The notes under the pieces are model-generated. The model did no database searches. It was not told the DNA's origin and saw only the letters and a program-made list of their open reading frames with translations. A program made the position numbers and the translations under genes. DNA of 15,376 nucleotides from a candidate division WOR-3 bacterium. GTDB lineage: Bacteria; Hydrothermota; Tepidihabitantia; Tepidihabitantales; DTDR01. Of this stretch, positions 3,632-14,025 are shown piece by piece (within the stretch, counting starts at the first letter, position 1; each line of letters begins with the position of its first letter). The stretch is taken from assembly GCA_039801885.1 (NCBI GenBank), contig JBDRVN010000042.1:1-15376 (forward strand). Direction: 5' to 3'.

Positions 3632-3649
3632 AAGAAGATTTATCTTCTT
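3632..3649. promoter_or_regulatory. 18-bp inverted repeat, candidate transcription-factor operator
   Basis: AAGAAGAT-TT-ATCTTCTT with perfect 8-bp arms, between the two divergent -35 boxes and overlapping the rightward -35 by 2 bp. Confidence 0.5.
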
Positions 3650-3675
3650 GAATTATTCTAAAGATTTATTATAAT
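3648..3675 (+). promoter_or_regulatory. Putative sigma70-type promoter for the four-gene membrane operon (leaderless)
   Basis: TTGAAT (3648-3653), 16-bp spacer, TATAAT (3670-3675), then 7 nt to the ATG at 3683. No Shine-Dalgarno. Confidence 0.68.
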
Positions 3676-3682
3676 TTATTCA

Positions 3683-4828
3683 ATGTATTTTTTTCTTTTT
3701 ATCTTTCTTTTCCAATATAATTATTTTGAATATATAAAAGTCTATGATACACCTTCGGATGAGGGTGGCAGTATTAGTTTAGAATGGCAGATAAAAGAAG
3801 AATTTATTTCCGAAGAAAACCCAATAAAATTTTTTGAGATTTATCGGAATGAGAAGAAAGATACTCTTTTAGAAAATGTTGGTTTTGTTTTATCTCAATA
3901 TAATTATTATGAAGATAAAGGCTTAAAAGATAATAAAGATTATTATTATCAAATTTGGGCAATAAGAGAGAAAGATACATTAAAATCAGAAGTTATTGGT
4001 CCGGTTATCTCTCGTCCCCAATGGTTTAACAAAAATCGTTTTAATGTCTTAATTATTACTATTATTTTATTCATTGTCTTTTTATATTATATTGAAAAGG
4101 CAAGAAAAGGTGAGAGGTTATTTGTTAGAAAGATAAGTGGTCTTGATGCGATTGATGATGCGGTGGGTCGGGCAACGGAAATGGGCAGGCCAATTCTATT
4201 TTCTTTTGGTCTTGGTTTTATTACTGATGTGGTAACAATTGCCGCCTTATCTATTTTATCAAAGATTGCCCGAAAGGCTGCCGAATATGGCACAAGATTA
4301 CTTATTCCTAATTATGACCCAATTGTGATGACTGCTGCCCAAGAGACAGTGAAAGAAGCCTATTTAGAAAGTGGCAGACCGGATTTATATAAAGAAGGTG
4401 ATATTACCTATTTGACTTCTGACCAGTTTGGTTATGCGGCGGGGTGTGATGGAATAATTATGCGAGAAAAGCCTGGTGCGATATTCTGGCAAGGATATTT
4501 CTTTGCCGAATCTTTAATCTTGGCGGAAACCGGCCACGCAGTTGGTGCTATCCAAATTGCCGGCACAACGGCGATAACCCAATTGCCCTTCTTCATTGCT
4601 GCCTGTGATTATACTCTAATTGGCGAAGAGATGTTTGCTGCCTCTTGCTATTTAAAACCCGAACCGCAAATGCTTGGCTCTTTAAAAGGTGAAGATTTTT
4701 TAAAGGCAGTTATCCTAATTATCTTTATCATTTCTGTTATCATTGCCACATTCTCAATCATCTTCAAAAATTTCTCTTTCTTAAATAATTTATACGAATT
4801 TATAAAAAATATTTTTACGATAAAATGA
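3683..4828 (+). CDS. Membrane protein with N-terminal fibronectin type III-like domain and C-terminal DUF6754-like domain
   Basis: Hydrophobic N-terminus and FN3-like beta-sandwich pattern (DTPSDEGGSISLEW...FEIYR...YEDKGLKDNKDYYYQIWA). Then a TM helix (VLIITIILFIVFLYY), an alpha/beta domain (RKISGLDAIDDAVGRATEMGRP...ESLILAETG...QIAGTT...ACDYTLIGEEMFAA) and a C-terminal TM. The DUF6754 assignment is from recognition of these motifs and needs HMM confirmation. Confidence 0.8.
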   Translation: MYFFLFIFLFQYNYFEYIKVYDTPSDEGGSISLEWQIKEEFISEENPIKFFEIYRNEKKDTLLENVGFVLSQYNYYEDKGLKDNKDYYYQIWAIREKDTLKSEVIGPVISRPQWFNKNRFNVLIITIILFIVFLYYIEKARKGERLFVRKISGLDAIDDAVGRATEMGRPILFSFGLGFITDVVTIAALSILSKIARKAAEYGTRLLIPNYDPIVMTAAQETVKEAYLESGRPDLYKEGDITYLTSDQFGYAAGCDGIIMREKPGAIFWQGYFFAESLILAETGHAVGAIQIAGTTAITQLPFFIAACDYTLIGEEMFAASCYLKPEPQMLGSLKGEDFLKAVILIIFIISVIIATFSIIFKNFSFLNNLYEFIKNIFTIK

Positions 4829-5523
4829 TTAGAAGTCAATTACCATTAATTATAACTTTCTTTACCGGAATGTTATTAATTATCACTTTTTTTATTCCCC
4901 ATAAGCCTTTTGGTGATTTAGAACAGAGGTTTTTAATCTGGTATTCAATTATTTCTGGTTTTACGGTCTTACTGGGCTTAGATAGTCTTGTGCGATACCA
5001 TTTGACAAAATTGAAAAGAGAATTTAATATCCATAGTCTTATTTTACTTTTTTCATTATTTTTAACTTTAATCTTAGGGTTCTATTCCTGGTTTAAATTT
5101 AAAACACCTTTTGCCTTAAATTCACCTTTTATGTATCTTTATACCTATGTGATTATACCATTACAAGCAACAATGTTTGCTTTGCTTGCCTTTTTTATTG
5201 CTTCGGCTGCCTATCGGGCATTTCGGGCAAGAACCTTTGAGGCAACTTTATTATTAATTGCGGCAACCATTGTTATGCTTGGTCGGGTACCGATCGGTTC
5301 TTATATCTGGAAAGGGATTGCCTATCTTATCTCATCTATCTTCCCAAAAATCCCTTACGAAGAACTTGCTAAAAAAGAAATCTTTGCGTTGATAAGTGAT
5401 TGGATAATGAATGTTCCTCAGAATGCCGCAAAAAGAGGAATCTTTATTGGCACCGCTCTCGGTGGTATTGCGATGTCAATAAGAATTATTTTAGGTATTG
5501 AAAGAACTTATATAACCAAATGA
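4825..5523 (+). CDS. Uncharacterised polytopic membrane protein (about 6 TM)
   Basis: 232 aa with multiple hydrophobic segments and conserved-looking motifs FALLAFFIASAAYRAFRAR and AAKRGIFIGTALG...RIILGIER. ATGA overlaps with both neighbours. Confidence 0.85.
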   Translation: MIRSQLPLIITFFTGMLLIITFFIPHKPFGDLEQRFLIWYSIISGFTVLLGLDSLVRYHLTKLKREFNIHSLILLFSLFLTLILGFYSWFKFKTPFALNSPFMYLYTYVIIPLQATMFALLAFFIASAAYRAFRARTFEATLLLIAATIVMLGRVPIGSYIWKGIAYLISSIFPKIPYEELAKKEIFALISDWIMNVPQNAAKRGIFIGTALGGIAMSIRIILGIERTYITK

Positions 5524-6341
5524 AAGATATTTGGACAAAATTAGCAACTATTGACCGAAGAATAATTTACCTTTTAGTATTTTTGGTTGTCTCTTTGCCA
5601 ATGATATTCAGAATGATTATGCCCATTCGGGTTTCTTCTGAAGTGAAAATGGCTTTTTCGGAGATTGATAATTTAAAACCTGGTTCAATTGTAATGATTT
5701 CTATTGATTATGACGCTGCCTCCGAGCCGGAATTACAACCAATGCTGATTGGGATTTTAAGACATTGCTTTTCCAAAGATATCAAAGTAATCTTATTAGG
5801 TCAATGGGCACTTGGACTTCCTTTAGGTGAGATTGCTTTAAATCAAGTTGCCAAGGAATATAATAAAAGATATGGTGAAGATTATGTGAACTTGGGTTAT
5901 CGACCCGGTTATACTGCCTTAATGGTTGGTATTGGAAAAGAGATAAGGGATTTCTTTCCTACGGATTATAAAGGAATTCCAATTGATTCTTTTCCTTTTA
6001 TGAGAAAAGTGAGAAATTATCAGCAGATTGATATCTTAGTTGGTTTAGAAGCCGGCGCAACTGGTGATGCTTGGGTTCAATTTGCTGGTGCCCGTTTTAA
6101 TCAAAAAATAATTTTAGGAACTACCGGTGTTGTCGCTCCGGATATGTTTCCTTATTTACAGGCAAAACAGATTGTTGGTTTAATTGGTGGTCTCCAAGGA
6201 GCAGCGGAATATGAGACATTAGTAAGGAAAGCGGGTAGTGCTATTTTGGGAATGCCTGCCCAATCTTTTGTCCATTTATTAATAATTATCTTTATTATTA
6301 TTGGTAATATTGGCTATTTTATTTTAAGAAAAAGGAAATGA
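5520..6341 (+). CDS. Uncharacterised membrane-anchored protein (TM - alpha/beta domain - TM), probable paralogue of the DUF6754-like domain
   Basis: 273 aa. N-terminal TM after IDRR, soluble domain with YGEDYVNLGY, ILGTTG and GLIGGLQGAAEYE, and a C-terminal TM followed by RKRK. ATGA-coupled on both sides. Confidence 0.85.
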   Translation: MKDIWTKLATIDRRIIYLLVFLVVSLPMIFRMIMPIRVSSEVKMAFSEIDNLKPGSIVMISIDYDAASEPELQPMLIGILRHCFSKDIKVILLGQWALGLPLGEIALNQVAKEYNKRYGEDYVNLGYRPGYTALMVGIGKEIRDFFPTDYKGIPIDSFPFMRKVRNYQQIDILVGLEAGATGDAWVQFAGARFNQKIILGTTGVVAPDMFPYLQAKQIVGLIGGLQGAAEYETLVRKAGSAILGMPAQSFVHLLIIIFIIIGNIGYFILRKRK

Positions 6342-6952
6342 TATTAAATATTATTGGCACTTGGCTGGCAGCTACTTTAACCTTAGCAATTTTCTCTTTC
6401 TTATATAAAGATAATCCCTTTTATAAACTTGCCGAACATATTTATGTTGGTGTCTCGGCTGGCTTTTGGGTTATTTATGTCTGGTCTTTTGATATCAAAC
6501 CAATGCTTATTGACCGATTTATAACAACAACAGGAGTTGAAAAATGGATATTATTAATTCCGGCAATCTTAGGTATCTTAATGCTTACCAGGTGGTTTCC
6601 CAAAACTGCTTGGATATCAAGAATTCCTTTATCTTTTACGATTGGTATTGGTGCCGGTTTAGGAGTTACTGCCAGTATCCAAGGTTTTCTAATTCCCCAA
6701 ATCGGTGCTACTTTGTTACCTTTAACAACAATTAATAATATCTTATTGGTTATTGGTGTTATCTCAACAATTATCTATTTTTATTTCTCAAAGGAATTTA
6801 AAGGAACTTGGAAATTTTTCTCCCGTTTAGGCATTATTTTTATTATGGTAGCCTTTGGTGCCTCTTTTGGTTATACTGTTATGGCAAGAATTTCATTATT
6901 AATTGGTAGGATTTATTTTCTTTTACATAACTTCTTACATATTATCCCTTAA
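6338..6952 (+). CDS. Uncharacterised polytopic membrane protein (about 6 TM, three internal hairpin repeats)
   Basis: 204 aa, highly hydrophobic, with FSFLYKDNPFYKLAEHIYVGVSAG and FGASFGYTVMARISLL motifs. ATGA-coupled to the upstream gene. Confidence 0.85.
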   Translation: MILNIIGTWLAATLTLAIFSFLYKDNPFYKLAEHIYVGVSAGFWVIYVWSFDIKPMLIDRFITTTGVEKWILLIPAILGILMLTRWFPKTAWISRIPLSFTIGIGAGLGVTASIQGFLIPQIGATLLPLTTINNILLVIGVISTIIYFYFSKEFKGTWKFFSRLGIIFIMVAFGASFGYTVMARISLLIGRIYFLLHNFLHIIP

Positions 6953-7952
6953 TCCTTTCTTTCCAATCTTTATATACTCGGGAAATACGATAGATAATAT
7001 AAGCAAAAATTAAAATTAAAAGGAGAAAATAAAAATAACCAGAAAAATAAAGGAAAATATTTCCCTTCTTGCCAATTTTCACAATTTCTAAACCCCGGTC
7101 ACTATCTAAATAGGCATAAGGATAAATTACAAAAACATCTTTTATATTATTTTCACTTTGATAATAATTAATCTCTTGTGGTGAATAAGGGTCTTTCACA
7201 TCAATTATGCTTAAACCAATATCCGTAGCCAGATAGATATAAGGCTTCTTATAAAATAAAGCAAGGGAATAACCAGCTACTGAATAGTCAATTATCTTTT
7301 CGGGATAACTTTTTATTTTTACATCAACAATTCCCAAACCCCTTTTACCACAAGCGAGATATATCAAATTATTTTCTCCATCAACATCTAAAATCGGTTT
7401 AATATCTTTTAGATAGCCAACTTCTCGCGGATTATAAATATCTTTTATGTCAATAATCTTTAAACCTTCTTCCTTATCAACAATATAACAGTAATTTTTA
7501 TAAATAAAAAAATTGCGACAAGAAGCAAAACCAGAAAGACGACCAATTTGATAAGGATTATTTAAATTCTCAATATTATAGATTTCAAAACCTCTTTTTG
7601 TTGCCAAATAGATATAAGAATTGATAACTTTAATATCATTACAACATTCTTTTAGGTCAAAAGAATTTATCAAAAAAGGAGAGTAATGGAAAGGATTTTT
7701 CACATCCCAAATTTCTATTCCCTTTTTTGTAGCCAGATAGAGTTTATCTTTTAAATAGTAAAGGCTATTTACTTTATCTTTGGCAATTATCTCTTCAGAA
7801 AGGATTTTTAAACTTTCTTTATCTTGGGCATTGTAGATAAAAACTTTTTCTCCCAAAGCATAAAAAAGGATTTCTCTTTTCTTATCATAGGTAATTGTCT
7901 TATTGATTAAAAGGTTAAAAAGAAAAAGTAAAAGAAATATTTTACTCTTCAC
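6942..7952 (-). CDS. LVIVD-repeat beta-propeller surface protein with N-terminal signal-like segment and C-terminal TM anchor
   Basis: About seven repeats of roughly 40 aa, e.g. YIYLATKRGFEIYNIENLNNPYQIG, YCYIVDKEEGLKIIDIKDIYNPREVG, YIYLATDIGLSIIDVKDPYSPQEIN. C-terminal FYFLLLILIFAYIIY followed by basic residues. GTG start. Confidence 0.85.
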   Translation of the reverse strand: MKSKIFLLLFLFNLLINKTITYDKKREILFYALGEKVFIYNAQDKESLKILSEEIIAKDKVNSLYYLKDKLYLATKKGIEIWDVKNPFHYSPFLINSFDLKECCNDIKVINSYIYLATKRGFEIYNIENLNNPYQIGRLSGFASCRNFFIYKNYCYIVDKEEGLKIIDIKDIYNPREVGYLKDIKPILDVDGENNLIYLACGKRGLGIVDVKIKSYPEKIIDYSVAGYSLALFYKKPYIYLATDIGLSIIDVKDPYSPQEINYYQSENNIKDVFVIYPYAYLDSDRGLEIVKIGKKGNIFLYFSGYFYFLLLILIFAYIIYRISRVYKDWKERIKG

Positions 7953-9453
7953 TGATTATTAAACCTTCAAAGATGTAAATTTCGATATCTTTATCTTTGT
8001 AACTATCCGGCTCTAAACCGGCTTTTAGGCAGGTATGCTTTAAAAAGGTTTCTCTGTCCCAACCGTATTCGGTGGCAACCTGGGGCAGAAGAAGACCTTG
8101 ATAAAAACCTTTTTTGATAAATATCCCATGCTTACCAACAACAATCTTATTAATATCATCTATCTTTCTTAATGGTGAAAGGACAGTAATCTCAATTTTA
8201 ATATCTTTTAACTCTCGCAAGCTGACCGGTGGAAATCTTGGGTCTCTTAATGCCGCATTTATTGCGTTATCAATAACTCCTTCGTATAATGGTTTTATCC
8301 CTTCAACATAACCAATACAACCCCTTAACTCACCAAACTTATTTAAGGTAACAAAGACACCGTATCTCTTTTTTAAATTCTCAGAAGTTATTTTAAAATC
8401 TGGTATATTTTTATTATTAAGATAATTTTCTAAGGTTTTTCGGGCAATATTTAATAATTCCTTTTTATCATCTTCACTCAGTTTTAATTCAAACTCTTCT
8501 TTGCTTAAATTTTTCTCTTGTTTATTTTCCTTCGGAATAACAAATGCGACTGAGCCATAGCCAACACAATATCCGGTCTTTACACCCATCACATCATTAG
8601 AATTGGTATAATTTAAGATAATTGCCTTTGCCTTTTTAGAAAGATTTTTCGCCGTTAAAATTCCAATAAGAATAGGAAAACCGCCACAGGCAGCAATACT
8701 TTCTCTTAATAATTTTTCATAGAAATCTTTTGGTTCTAATTTTTCAATATGACTTAATGTCCGCTTATCAGTCTCAACACATTCTTGATAAGAATAGCCA
8801 TGATATAAATCGGAAGAGATAAGAAAGATAATTTTTTTCTGGGAAGTTTTTATCACTTCGCTAATTGCCTTTGCCAGGTTTTCACATTCTTCATATTTGG
8901 GAAATAGAACCATTATCGGCACAATTTTAAAATCTTTATAAATTACTTGTAAAAAGGGAATTTGGACTTCTAAAGAATGTTCGTAATTATGTACTTCTTT
9001 TAAATCTTTTAAATAGGGACATTTATTTTTCAACTCTTTTGCTATCTCTTCATCAATCATAACTTCACCTAATGGTGTCTGCCAAGAACCATCTCCGTAT
9101 AAAGCAAAACCAGTAAAACTTGCCTGGTGTGAAGGACCAAGAAGAATAATTGTTTTGACATCTAAATCTTTAATAAATTTATAAGAATGGGCAGCCACTT
9201 TACCAGAAAAAGGATAACCAGCATGGGGAGAAAGCACGCCAATAATCTTATCTTTTATTTCGGAAACTTTTGCCCAATTGAGATAGCTTCTAATATCTTT
9301 CTCTAATTGAATCTTATCAGCCGGATAAAACTCGCCACTCACATAAGGTTTTCTAATCATTTTTGCCTCCAATTTCTTTTGTGGCTTTGAGCCACACATT
9401 AAAATTGATATTAAAATTAATATTAAAAAAATAATAATATTTTTAAACTTCAC
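7942..9453 (-). CDS. amrB: AmmeMemoRadiSam system protein B (MEMO1-like) - protein A (AMMECR1-like) fusion with N-terminal lipoprotein-like signal
   Basis: MEMO domain: RKPYVSGEFYP, SPHAGY, LLGPSH, EHSLEVQIPFLQ, SSDLYH, ACG, VGYGS. AMMECR1 domain: GVFVTL, LRGCIG, AALRDPRF, IEITVLSP, GKHGI, GLLLPQVATE, CLKAGL. The GTG start overlaps the TPR stop (GTGA); there is an alternative ATG at 9360. Confidence 0.93.
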   Translation of the reverse strand: MKFKNIIIFLILILISILMCGSKPQKKLEAKMIRKPYVSGEFYPADKIQLEKDIRSYLNWAKVSEIKDKIIGVLSPHAGYPFSGKVAAHSYKFIKDLDVKTIILLGPSHQASFTGFALYGDGSWQTPLGEVMIDEEIAKELKNKCPYLKDLKEVHNYEHSLEVQIPFLQVIYKDFKIVPIMVLFPKYEECENLAKAISEVIKTSQKKIIFLISSDLYHGYSYQECVETDKRTLSHIEKLEPKDFYEKLLRESIAACGGFPILIGILTAKNLSKKAKAIILNYTNSNDVMGVKTGYCVGYGSVAFVIPKENKQEKNLSKEEFELKLSEDDKKELLNIARKTLENYLNNKNIPDFKITSENLKKRYGVFVTLNKFGELRGCIGYVEGIKPLYEGVIDNAINAALRDPRFPPVSLRELKDIKIEITVLSPLRKIDDINKIVVGKHGIFIKKGFYQGLLLPQVATEYGWDRETFLKHTCLKAGLEPDSYKDKDIEIYIFEGLIISEE

Positions 9454-10401: not shown

Positions 10402-10430
10402 ATAATAAGTAAAAACTTCCTAATAGTCAA
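10402..10430 (-). promoter_or_regulatory. Putative sigma70-type promoter for trkA-TPR-amrBA-LVIVD (leaderless)
   Basis: Minus strand: TTGACT (10430-10425, inside the last codons of the C25 gene), 17-bp spacer, TATTAT (10407-10402), 5 nt to the ATG at 10396. Confidence 0.55.
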
Positions 10431-13400
10431 TTATTAACTTATTAATGATTTCTTTCTTCTCTTTTCTTTCTAAGGAAGATAAACTTAATTTGTAAAGATA
10501 AATACCCTTTGCGAAATTGTTTATTTCGATCGGCAGGGAGTTAAAGCCAAAATTAAAGAGCAAATTGTTCTTTTCTAATATCTTTCTGCCATTAATGGTA
10601 TAAATTTTAATACTTCCCAAGCAGCCTTCGTTTAAAAAGAAAGTAAAATATAGATGATTTTTCAGCCGGACAACCGCCAAATCTTTTAGCTCAATTTTTG
10701 GTTCTATCTTGGTCTTTAAGATAATTACTTTCTCTTTTTTATTTAAAAGGTTATCATAGATAATAATCCGGCAGTTATTAAAATCTCTTTTTAAACTTAT
10801 TGGTATTTTAGAATAATAAAAGGTATCAATAAAATAAAAATAGCCGCCCAAATCAATAGCCTCATCTTCAACTATTATCTTTGGTGAATAAATTTCTCCC
10901 TTTTTTAAAAATATCCCGCTCTCATCAAATGCCCTTATCGCCAATTCAAAATTCTTTTCTACTTCACTGGTATCTTTCAGGTTTTTATTATTGGCATATA
11001 AGTAAATATTTGGTGGCAAACTATCAAAATTCTCATAAGGTAATGTATCCCTAAAAAAGGTATCAATGTTAAAGGTAAAAGAAGAATCTTTTGTCTTATA
11101 AAATATTGATAGTTTTAAACTTTTAGGTATTTCCCAATAATAATTTTCCGGTGAACCTAAAAAGATAGTATCTAATCTTAAACCTTTCGGAAAGACAAAG
11201 GAGAAAGAATAAAAAGTATCTTTTAATATCTTCTTAGAAAGAAAAATATCTTCACCCGGAAGGTTATAAAAGATATCAATAACCGGTGATTTATATCTTC
11301 TTTTTCTTTTACCCAAAGAAAACCTTATCTCACTAAATTCTACCCCTTTTTTAAGAAAAATCTTTCCGTTAATCTTTTTACCCGGTAAAAAAGGCTGTTC
11401 GGTTATCTCTAAATCTAATTCTCTTCTTTTTGGCAGGTTTATTTTTGTTAAGGGCTCACCAAATAAATGGTAAAAGGTATTTACCAACCAGGCATTATAA
11501 AAACAATCTCCTAAAATATCTTTATTATTATAAATAAGTGCCAAAACAAATCTCCTTAAAAGCTCTTCATTACCTGGTGGTGAAGTTCCCTTTATCGCAC
11601 CAATTGTCGCAATAAAACCTTCTCTATTTCTGATAAGTTCTTCGGATAATGCCTCATATTTTGTATCATCAAACCGACCAACACCACAACTACCAAAATA
11701 ACCAATCGGATAATTTGGTCTTGCCTTTATTCGCTTCACATCAAGTAAGGTTAATAATTTCTCGTGGGCAATCTGAAAACCAGCACCATGACCAAAATAG
11801 AAACAAAAAGAAATCCCTTTATCATTTAATAGTCTTATAAACTCATCACGAGCATTGGTCTTATCCTCATTACCAAGAAAGGGAAATTCCGTAAGATATA
11901 ATTTATCAACATCATAATCCTTGGGAATAATTGAAGCAACATTCTCACAATTTATAATATGGTCTGCCCGAAACTCATCCGGCTCACTTGGACTTCCTTT
12001 ATACTCATCATCCGCCAAGAAAAGAATTCTCTTTTTATAACCCGTTAAATTCTTCTCATATTCTTTTAATTTATCCAAATATTCCTTTATCTCACTTTCC
12101 CTTCTTAATGGTAATCTTGTTAAAACGAAATCCGGACTTCTGCCATTGCCTTCAAAATCAGCAAAATAGGAATCTAAGGCATAAATAGCCGTATTATAAA
12201 CATTGTAATCAAAACCATAACCAACCTCATAAGTAAATATTTGTGGTTTATTATACAAAAGATTCCGATAATCATAAGTGGCATCACCAACCAAACAACC
12301 ATACAAAGGTCTCTTTAAAGAGAAAAATTTCTTTAATGAATAAGGTTCCTCACACCCAAATAGATAATGGTCAATTATCTCTTCTATCTTAAAAATCTCA
12401 GTGCTTATCTCTTTATCCCGATATCTTTTAAGTTGCTGACAGGCATAATATAAATCACTTGGACAAATAATGAGATAGAAAGCCGACCTTAAATGGATAT
12501 CACTATTTTGATAATAACTCTTATTCTCTATTCTTTTTACTCTCTTTATTCTATCTAAATCACTAATATATAAAATTGTTGTATCAAAGGCATTATAAGA
12601 AAAATATAAAGTATCTTTCTCAATTTGATAATCTTTTAATATCTTTGGTGAAAACTCATTTGTGATATCTAAAATAATTGGTTTTTTAACTTTACTTATT
12701 TTTATATTATGCCTCTTTATGCTATCTAAGATAATAAAAAATGGTGCATCTTGGAAATTTAATTGCCTTAAATAGCCAAACTCAAAATAATCGGTATAAA
12801 AATTCATTGCCTTATTCTCTCTATAAAAAACAAGTTTCAGATTTATTTTATCTTTTATTGGATACTCTATTTTCTTGGTATAAACTGAACCAGCAGGCGG
12901 CAAAGCAGAAAATATTTTTAAAGTATCGATTAAATTATTATCCAAAAAAATTTCCATTTTAAAATCAAAATAACTATCCGCAAATATCCTAAATTTTAGG
13001 CTATCTAACAAAAAGGAATTATTGATATTAAAACTATAACTTATCTCTTTACTTACCTCGTAACTTGCCTTTTCTATCTTATCCCAAATCCATAATAGGC
13101 CACCACGCGCAGGACAATCCTTATCCAATTCAATATGCTTCTTCTCATAGCCAAAATTCTTAAATATTTCACTTCTATCCGCAAATCCCGATACCTCTTT
13201 CATTCTCTTTCCCTCTTTCTCACCAATACATAGCCAATAGATATTATATAAGGTATATAAATTATGAGAATAATCTTTAAATTTATTTCTAAAATAAGAG
13301 GCACCACGCGCATAAAATAAAATATAATCATCTTCATTAAATCTATTACTATCTTTAATAAAAAAGAGATAAGGTATTTCGGTTAAGGTATCAGGATAAT

Positions 13401-14025
13401 AGGTATTTGGAGTATAATCACCAATATTAAAAATCCTTATCTTCTTTGGCGAAATTAAAGAGAGATTAAGTCCCGCCTCTTTTAAATCCTTACCGGTTAT
13501 TTTATATAAGCCCGAACTATCAATATAGATCTTAAAAATATAATAAAAATCCGAAAAAAAATTCCTTAAAGTATCAAGAGAATTTAATGGGGTCAAAGAA
13601 ATGGTATCTTCTTCGTATTCTAAACTTATTGGATTATAAATAATTCTCTTATTATCAATTTGAAAGGGATAATAGGTTATTTTCAATATCTCTTTATTGC
13701 GAAAATTTAATGTCTCAATTATAAGAAAATTCTCAGGATATTTTACCAATTCTAAATTAATATCACCGTCTCCTTCCAAAATACCAAATCTTGATGCCTT
13801 AGGAATGGTAAAAGGAAAATCGCTCTCTTTACTTCTTAAATAATTTATCTTAACCGAATTCTTTTTCGCAAAGAGCACTTTACTTGGCAAATAAGGATAA
13901 GGATATGCCTCCTGAAATAAAAAACCCTTCTTAATTAAAGTCTCTTTAAAAGAAGAGAAGTTATCAAAGTTTAAAGATAGATTACTAAAATCAAGATATA
14001 AATTAAAGAGAAAAAGAACTAACAT
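10420..14025 (-). CDS. C25 (gingipain-family) cysteine peptidase, PorU-like, with T9SS type A-like C-terminal sorting domain
   Basis: PorU-like N-terminal region (KIYIDSSGLYKITGKDL, DYILFYARG, HNLYTLYNIYWL), LVGDATYDYRN, FLADDE, catalytic FGHG (His746) and GSCGVGRFD (Cys780), YHLFGEP, DSLPPNI, DESGI. C-terminal domain IKIYTINGRKI...GIYLYKL...KLII. Confidence 0.88.
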   Translation of the reverse strand: MLVLFLFNLYLDFSNLSLNFDNFSSFKETLIKKGFLFQEAYPYPYLPSKVLFAKKNSVKINYLRSKESDFPFTIPKASRFGILEGDGDINLELVKYPENFLIIETLNFRNKEILKITYYPFQIDNKRIIYNPISLEYEEDTISLTPLNSLDTLRNFFSDFYYIFKIYIDSSGLYKITGKDLKEAGLNLSLISPKKIRIFNIGDYTPNTYYPDTLTEIPYLFFIKDSNRFNEDDYILFYARGASYFRNKFKDYSHNLYTLYNIYWLCIGEKEGKRMKEVSGFADRSEIFKNFGYEKKHIELDKDCPARGGLLWIWDKIEKASYEVSKEISYSFNINNSFLLDSLKFRIFADSYFDFKMEIFLDNNLIDTLKIFSALPPAGSVYTKKIEYPIKDKINLKLVFYRENKAMNFYTDYFEFGYLRQLNFQDAPFFIILDSIKRHNIKISKVKKPIILDITNEFSPKILKDYQIEKDTLYFSYNAFDTTILYISDLDRIKRVKRIENKSYYQNSDIHLRSAFYLIICPSDLYYACQQLKRYRDKEISTEIFKIEEIIDHYLFGCEEPYSLKKFFSLKRPLYGCLVGDATYDYRNLLYNKPQIFTYEVGYGFDYNVYNTAIYALDSYFADFEGNGRSPDFVLTRLPLRRESEIKEYLDKLKEYEKNLTGYKKRILFLADDEYKGSPSEPDEFRADHIINCENVASIIPKDYDVDKLYLTEFPFLGNEDKTNARDEFIRLLNDKGISFCFYFGHGAGFQIAHEKLLTLLDVKRIKARPNYPIGYFGSCGVGRFDDTKYEALSEELIRNREGFIATIGAIKGTSPPGNEELLRRFVLALIYNNKDILGDCFYNAWLVNTFYHLFGEPLTKINLPKRRELDLEITEQPFLPGKKINGKIFLKKGVEFSEIRFSLGKRKRRYKSPVIDIFYNLPGEDIFLSKKILKDTFYSFSFVFPKGLRLDTIFLGSPENYYWEIPKSLKLSIFYKTKDSSFTFNIDTFFRDTLPYENFDSLPPNIYLYANNKNLKDTSEVEKNFELAIRAFDESGIFLKKGEIYSPKIIVEDEAIDLGGYFYFIDTFYYSKIPISLKRDFNNCRIIIYDNLLNKKEKVIILKTKIEPKIELKDLAVVRLKNHLYFTFFLNEGCLGSIKIYTINGRKILEKNNLLFNFGFNSLPIEINNFAKGIYLYKLSLSSLERKEKKEIINKLIIDY

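Follow-up and report, generated by a model that had tools for sequence, protein, structure and literature searches.

The Fluc channels are reportedly one case in which homologous membrane proteins are arranged antiparallel. Other such pairs are YdgE/YdgF, YdgQ/YdgL and the DUF606 pairs, and the first two are described as having opposite biases in lysine plus arginine (K+R), recognisable homology, and membrane domains as the inverted units (PMC3962082). A four-gene operon, here called g1-g4, in a 15,376-nucleotide stretch of DNA from a candidate division WOR-3 bacterium (GenBank assembly GCA_039801885.1, contig JBDRVN010000042.1; the whole stretch is referred to as the window) was proposed in an earlier note to encode a pair of this kind, g1 and g3, with homologous soluble domains on opposite sides of the membrane. 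To our knowledge, no characterised transporter or channel carries a large homologous soluble domain on each membrane face. The analysis presented here indicates that g1-g4 probably encode four subunits of one conserved inner-membrane complex, in which g1 and g3 represent different families with soluble domains predicted on opposite faces. The four genes are all on the + strand, and each junction between them is a four-base overlap:

3683-4828, + strand: g1, open reading frame of 381 amino acids (aa) with a hydrophobic N-terminus, an FN3 ectodomain, a first transmembrane helix (TM1), a DUF6754 globular domain, a second transmembrane helix (TM2) and a short tail

4825-5523, + strand: g2, 232 aa, about six transmembrane (TM) helices, predicted with both N- and C-terminus inside

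5520-6341, + strand: g3, 273 aa, with a basic N-terminus, TM1, a Rossmann-like alpha/beta ectodomain, TM2 and a basic tail

6338-6952, + strand: g4, 204 aa, with six or perhaps seven hydrophobic segments and an N-terminus predicted outside

Compared with the antiparallel pairs (PMC3962082), the locus is alike in that a single operon, here with g2 between g1 and g3, encodes products of opposite K+R bias and orientation, and in that proteins fused in nature have to be joined through helices in odd number, which the g3-g4 fusion described below illustrates. It differs in that homology between g1 and g3 is undetectable, in that each partner has two helices, and in that soluble domains of about 190-210 residues stand on opposite faces.

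The case for a single complex begins with the conservation of the operon. A scan with a DUF6754 profile, covering one genome per species, returned at least 568 confirmed relatives among at least 595 matched stretches, of which 79 loci were kept. Where g1 is followed by 2.3 kb of sequence or more, the order g1-g2-g3-g4 holds in 83 of 84 copies; the exception, locus L016, does have g4, split by a run of N, and the count becomes 84/84 if it is included. The groups that carry the operon include, by record title, WOR-3, Zixibacteria, Latescibacteria, Eisenbacteria, Fermentibacteria, Stahlbacteria, Coatesbacteria, Cloacimonadota and Eremiobacterota, among further groups. Tandem repetition of the entire operon, twofold or threefold, is seen in at least 23 of the 79 loci (L013, L018, L023, L031, L037, L038, L049, L050, L055, L057, L059, L063-L067, L074, L076, L078, L079 and others), and these duplications are old and have been retained, since a quick tree separates first copies from second copies, with good support, in clades that span genomes. 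The conserved order, the four-base overlaps and the natural fusions (g3 joined to g4, and g3-type domains joined to DUF6754) are together the reason for considering the four products parts of one complex.

The g1 product is a clear member of the Pfam family DUF6754 (PF20539), which matches its residues 111-360 with an E-value of 1.7e-113 and 378.4 bits (gathering cut-off 27 bits), and g3 is not a member. The database holds at least 7999 g1 relatives, and PF20539 is present in 120 of 120 among the matches listed. The parts of g1 are predicted as follows:

3725..4012, + strand: FN3-like ectodomain of g1, about residues 15-110, predicted outside

4040..4096, + strand: TM1 of g1, about residues 120-138, running from out to in, from hydropathy

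4127..4690, + strand: DUF6754 globular part of g1, about residues 149-336, predicted cytoplasmic

4709..4765, + strand: TM2 of g1, about residues 343-361, running from in to out

The FN3 assignment comes from a profile (A2), which finds titin FN3 chains in the PDB at an E-value of 3.2e-13. In line with this, Foldseek pairs the AlphaFold model of g1 with FN3 domains at template modelling scores normalised to the target (TMt) of 0.6-0.78, and the predicted local distance difference test (pLDDT) over this part is 82-93; the Pfam fn3 model gives no match to the window g1 at E<=1. All Foldseek matches of the g1 model are driven by the FN3 part. The mean identity to the window among 52 relatives is 65% for the DUF6754 soluble part and 26% for FN3, and by this measure the DUF6754 globular part is the most conserved piece of the operon. 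Pfam lists the family without an assigned function, and no paper in the collection searched names DUF6754 or PF20539.

The g3 product has 4446 cluster representatives among its relatives at E<=1e-3, and the analyses of representatives reported below concern the best 150 of these 4446. Its AlphaFold model is confident (pLDDT 89.7, predicted template modelling score 0.86) and consists of six beta-alpha units between two long helices at residues 13-29 and 240-270, where hydropathy places TM helices at about 15-33 and 249-269:

5637..6257, + strand: globular domain of g3, about residues 40-246, predicted extracytoplasmic

6264..6326, + strand: TM2 of g3, about residues 249-269, with the invariant polar residues H252 and N263

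Across the same 52 relatives the mean identity to the window is 46% for the g3 domain and 54% for TM2, which is the best-conserved TM helix among those of g1 and g3. The two invariant polar residues inside this C-terminal helix, H252 (window 6273-6275) and N263 (6306-6308), may indicate where subunits touch or where a polar path crosses the membrane. Among the relatives P0241-P0390, the g3 domain shows two insertion hot spots, which follow residues ~113 and ~238, the latter just before the last TM helix; the inserts are 45 to 556 residues long, and P0312 has two complete g3 domains in tandem between its TM helices.

Searches place g3 in a fold class and in no named family. It has no Pfam match at E<=1 and no NCBIfam, PADLOC or PDB-sequence profile match, and a Pfam scan of 53 g3 members returned noise, the best family, an unrelated one, being matched by 6 members at an E-value of 0.026. 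In the ESM Atlas, 30 of 30 feature matches are unnamed clusters, and the search of named clusters gave no usable match. Foldseek of the g3 model against the PDB yields 11 matches at E<=0.001, all of them generic Rossmann-like, with template modelling scores normalised to the query (TMq) of at most 0.37 and root mean square deviations of 7-10 A. The best target coverage is reached by LOG and Moco-carrier type proteins, namely the Moco carrier protein 2iz7 (TMt 0.55, E 5.8e-4) and 1wek (TMt 0.43), both with a probability of at least 0.97. This likeness concerns the fold class only, because glycosyltransferase, eIF2B, PGK and SDR folds score alike, and the low TMq, the large deviations and the lack of a Pfam match to a LOG or Moco-carrier family at E<=1 set g3 apart from these proteins.

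Another comparison is offered by the GldG-type auxiliary proteins of ABC transporters, in which two TM helices enclose a large alpha/beta ectodomain and which are common in the FCB group. Like them, g3 forms a bitopic hairpin whose alpha/beta domain is exported, and its gene lies next to genes for polytopic partners. It differs from them in having no match to a Pfam model of any kind at the above threshold, in that the operon contains no ABC ATPase, and in that neither g2 nor g4 has a match among ABC-2 permease models. The g1-g4 complex lies outside every characterised system tested.

The two polytopic subunits are equally without named relatives: g2 has no Pfam, NCBIfam or PADLOC match, and its best PDB profile hit (E 0.087) is noise; g4 has no Pfam, NCBIfam, PADLOC or PDB match. 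In the alignments of 53 locus-matched rows per gene, the K+R bias of g2 fits a cytoplasmic N-terminus in 51 of 53 rows with one tie, and that of g4 fits an N-terminus outside in 45 of 53 rows with five ties. A relationship between g2 and g4 was considered and is unsupported, the hhalign probability being 0.2% without a collinear path; a cross-search with hidden Markov models (HMMs) reached a best i-Evalue of 0.001, but out of register.

Two further gene families recur near the operon. A highly conserved soluble protein of 375 aa, family c5, has its gene immediately ahead of g1, in the same orientation, in 21 of the 65 loci that have at least 1.4 kb upstream, and anywhere in 30 of the 79 loci (for example, L058:9619-10746 (+), L034:4649-5776, L028:11824-12951 and L066:1741-2868); it is not found in the window. 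This family has no Pfam, NCBIfam, PDB or PADLOC match and may be a fifth, cytoplasmic partner. Nine loci have a gene of the MotA/ExbB family at 2-3 kb downstream of the operon, as in L043:12320-13072 (+), which may reflect lineage-specific synteny rather than a functional link.

That DUF6754 lies inside and the g3 domain outside, as had been proposed from the positive-inside rule, is a prediction on which five independent lines agree: the g1 N-termini with FN3, the K+R bias, a CARDB insert and two types of natural fusion. The features used in the original argument are in place. Hydropathy and the AlphaFold helices (117-142 and 336-360 in g1, and those given above for g3) agree that two TM helices flank each globular part, and the basic patches do lie after g1 TM1, before g3 TM1 and at the g3 C-terminus. 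Specifically, the stretch after g1 TM1 is strongly basic, with a family mean of 4.3 K+R per 10 residues, and the K+R counts of g1 (mean 7.2 inside vs 3.5 outside) and of g3 (7.4 vs 3.0) both fit the orientation proposed for them, in 53 of 53 rows each. Family-mean hydropathy shows no TM-like core in DUF6754 between residues 139 and 342. Ahead of FN3, the g1 relatives have signal-peptide-like N-termini, read by eye and without a predictor in 52 relatives. By our own count of the listed long DUF6754 proteins, the N-terminal part contains PQQ-type repeats in 30 of 120 and FN3 in 12 of 120, and DUF6754 itself is C-terminal in 119 of 120, with at most 39 residues after it; the exception is P0423, with 179.

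The exported location of the g3 domain is further indicated by the relative P0269, in which a 556-residue insert inside the globular part contains a CARDB domain. CARDB is an extracellular domain type. Additionally, three of the 120 long DUF6754 proteins (P0452, P0449 and P0415) consist of a signal peptide, one to three g3-type domains, one TM helix, DUF6754 and a last TM helix, with i-Evalues down to 2e-32 for the g3-type domains and about 1e-120 for DUF6754. The single TM pass between the two kinds of domain within one polypeptide supports their location on opposite faces. The second type of fusion, that of g3 with g4, occurs in P0388, one of the best 150 g3 representatives, and has one extra hydrophobic helix at the junction, which fits a g3 C-terminus inside and a g4 N-terminus outside. 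The opposite orientation of g1 and g3 is supported by these sequence-based predictions. It is likewise well supported that g1 has its near-invariant DUF6754 in the cytoplasm and, on the outer side, an exported module that varies (FN3 in the window; in relatives, PQQ-type propellers or g3-type domains), and that g3 has its Rossmann-like domain outside and both termini inside. As for the domains of these DUF6754 fusions, some g3-type matches in P0452, P0449 and P0415 are ordered C-half then N-half, e.g., 212-291 then 378-507 in P0449, which suggests either circular permutation of the domain or tandem domains that were detected only in part.

The earlier claim of homologous domains on both faces is divided: soluble domains are predicted on both faces, and homology between them is not supported. 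The motif strings on which the paralogy had been built are all present in g1 and g3, and the numbering of G294 (g1) and G200 (g3) is correct, but the similarity is not above chance in BLASTP, in shuffling tests, in hhalign or in HMM cross-searches. The best BLASTP E-value between g1 and g3 is 1.8, and the segment that spans the second and third of the proposed motif pairs (11 of 32 residues identical) has an E-value of 4.4. Between the soluble parts (g1 150-336 and g3 40-246), the local BLOSUM62 score has a z of -0.85, being equalled or exceeded by 418 of 500 shuffles, and the global score has a z of 0.52, with 155 of 500 shuffles as high. With the C-terminal TM helices included, z for the global score becomes 2.0 and 17 of 500 shuffles do as well, a rise that is due to a hydrophobic segment at the same end of both proteins and not to the domains.

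Profile comparisons give the same outcome. The hhalign probability is 0.5% with 41 g1 and 39 g3 relatives, and with deeper sets of 104 g1 and 222 g3 sequences it is 1.4% for whole proteins and 1.5% for soluble parts, where the same sets give 2.3% for g1-g4 and 0.8% for g1-g2 as controls. With 335 DUF6754 sequences (effective number of sequences, Neff, 2.8) it is 1-2%, compared with 4.5% for the g1-g4 control. The locus-matched alignments reach 5.3% by pairing g1 TM1 and its basic patch with the C-terminal TM helix and basic tail of g3. The best-scoring hhalign matches are TM helices, except for two soluble-only runs of 57 and 53 columns, and the -glob option returns a one-column alignment. In HMM searches across the families the matches fall on TM helices only, and searches with the soluble parts give best i-Evalues of 1.4-1.9 in databases of just 104 and 222 sequences. 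The DUF6754 HMM matches none of the best 150 g3 representatives, and the g3 HMM has no match to the DUF6754 parts of the three fusion proteins at a domain E-value of at most 0.1. The earlier note had named a lack of significant profile similarity as grounds for giving up the paralogy, and by that measure the paralogy is not supported, since profile similarity is significant in no test.

Several observations nevertheless weigh against treating g1 and g3 as unrelated subunits of a single machine. With hhalign at -mact 0.01, one collinear path of 195 columns runs in the register proposed by the manual alignment with a Sum_probs of 55.4, higher than for single-reversed profiles (21-22) and for g3 against control families (at most 31.4); along it conserved glycines coincide (G168/G55, G294/G200 and G314/G223), and a local match between soluble parts, g1 166-223 with g3 53-111, recurs in the same register with P-values of 0.023-0.035. 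The null distribution for Sum_probs is thin, about ten real families, because five of the 15 control families (numbers 0, 1, 2, 9 and 12) fall within the operon, either on its opposite strand or as same-strand overlaps, and are unlikely to be genes. Sensitivity is limited by the shallowness of the DUF6754 profiles (Neff 2.0-3.2), and the g1 model is weak over residues 247-337 (pLDDT <50), the region that holds the proposed motifs. The similar helix counts and opposite predicted orientations of g2 and g4 are the residue expected from inverted duplication of a two-gene module. Lastly, no ligand, cofactor or catalytic motif was identified in g1-g4 as a clue to function.

These points are the ones that favour an origin of the DUF6754 and g3 domains as ancient paralogues fixed in opposite orientations or, in a fuller form, of g1+g2 and g3+g4 from an inverted two-gene duplication; to them may be added the architecture shared by the g1 and g3 models, about six beta-alpha units between two TM helices. 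Such an origin is doubtful nonetheless. None of six kinds of sequence test is significant, g2 and g4 show no collinear path, and g3-type domains and DUF6754 stand in one polypeptide as clearly distinct sequence families. The apparent strength of the collinear path is matched by controls, g1 reaching a Sum_probs of 56.5 with the unrelated soluble family c5 and scoring higher with two control families. In the proposed register, the secondary-structure strings of the g1 and g3 models agree in 86 of 169 columns (51%) and shifted registers reach up to 57%, so that the agreement is uninformative, as expected for any two beta-alpha repeat domains. The likeness of g1 and g3 is most simply explained as generic, i.e., about six beta-alpha units, small residues after strands, a terminal TM helix and TM composition, and common descent is not demonstrable. 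A specific version, in which an ancient inverted duplication of a module made of a bitopic hairpin and a six-helix protein gave rise to the operon, and its products form an antiparallel, pseudo-symmetric hetero-tetramer with a homologous soluble domain on each face, is accordingly judged unlikely.

Two other readings dispute the complex or its topology rather than its ancestry. If some TM helix did not span the membrane, or if DUF6754 contained hidden membrane segments, the g1 and g3 domains would share one side; the g1 N-terminus of the window does lack a basic n-region, and DUF6754 is fairly hydrophobic, with a TM-like window at 170-196 when the single sequence is considered. Such an arrangement is highly improbable in view of the uniform K+R bias in both proteins, the absence of a TM-like core from the family mean over residues 139-342, the classic signal peptides of relatives, the single TM helix in the three fusions and the CARDB insert in the g3 relative. 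It is just as hard to credit that g1-g4 are merely neighbours that form no complex, given the near-universal gene order, the duplication of the operon as a unit, both types of fusion and the overlapping start and stop codons. A conserved complex of four subunits, with g1 and g3 as different bitopic hairpins that each hold an alpha/beta domain between two TM helices, is the reading that we prefer.

Such a complex would comprise roughly sixteen helices (2+6+2+6). The exported parts of g1 and g3 may bind an external substrate or otherwise handle it, the path through the membrane could be made up of g2 and g4, and DUF6754, possibly with the c5 protein that is adjacent in a third of genomes, might be the cytoplasmic catalytic or energising end. 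The whole would then be a machine of the transporter, translocase or transmembrane-signalling type.

The window has a G+C content of about 31%, and the closest relatives of its proteins carry the name candidate division WOR-3. None of the neighbouring genes is linked to the operon. Housekeeping genes near it encode GatA, GatC, an HD protein, a class II aminoacyl-tRNA synthetase, a Memo-AMMECR1 fusion and TrkA. Other features of the window are listed here:

3648-3675, + strand: promoter-like site with 10 of 12 matches, ending 8 bases before the g1 start codon

6942-7952, - strand: LVIVD / PorZ-like beta-propeller protein of 336 aa, adjoining the operon

7942-9453, - strand: protein of 503 aa that fuses Memo-like and AMMECR1 domains, with a hydrophobic N-terminus

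10420-14025, - strand: Peptidase C25 protein of 1201 aa, whose match to the Por secretion tail is weak (E 1.4e-4) and does not reach the Pfam cut-off

Promoter-like sites in the region are not above shuffled expectation, 20 being found against a mean of 17.1. The C25 peptidase and the PorZ/LVIVD-like propeller point to export of the type IX secretion (T9SS) kind in the source organism.

The paralogy that made the original observation striking is not supported, and the complex is still worth attention. Were structure to bear out inverted paralogues, inverted-topology evolution would apply to entire subunits with large soluble domains and not to membrane domains alone. As it stands, three of the four subunits (g2, g3 and g4) have no family in Pfam, NCBIfam or the PDB, and g1 bears only a DUF label, its DUF6754 part being conserved across phyla at a level typical of core enzymes while the exported module is freely swapped. 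The operon probably specifies a four-subunit membrane complex with thousands of relatives, widespread in candidate phyla and often kept in old tandem copies.

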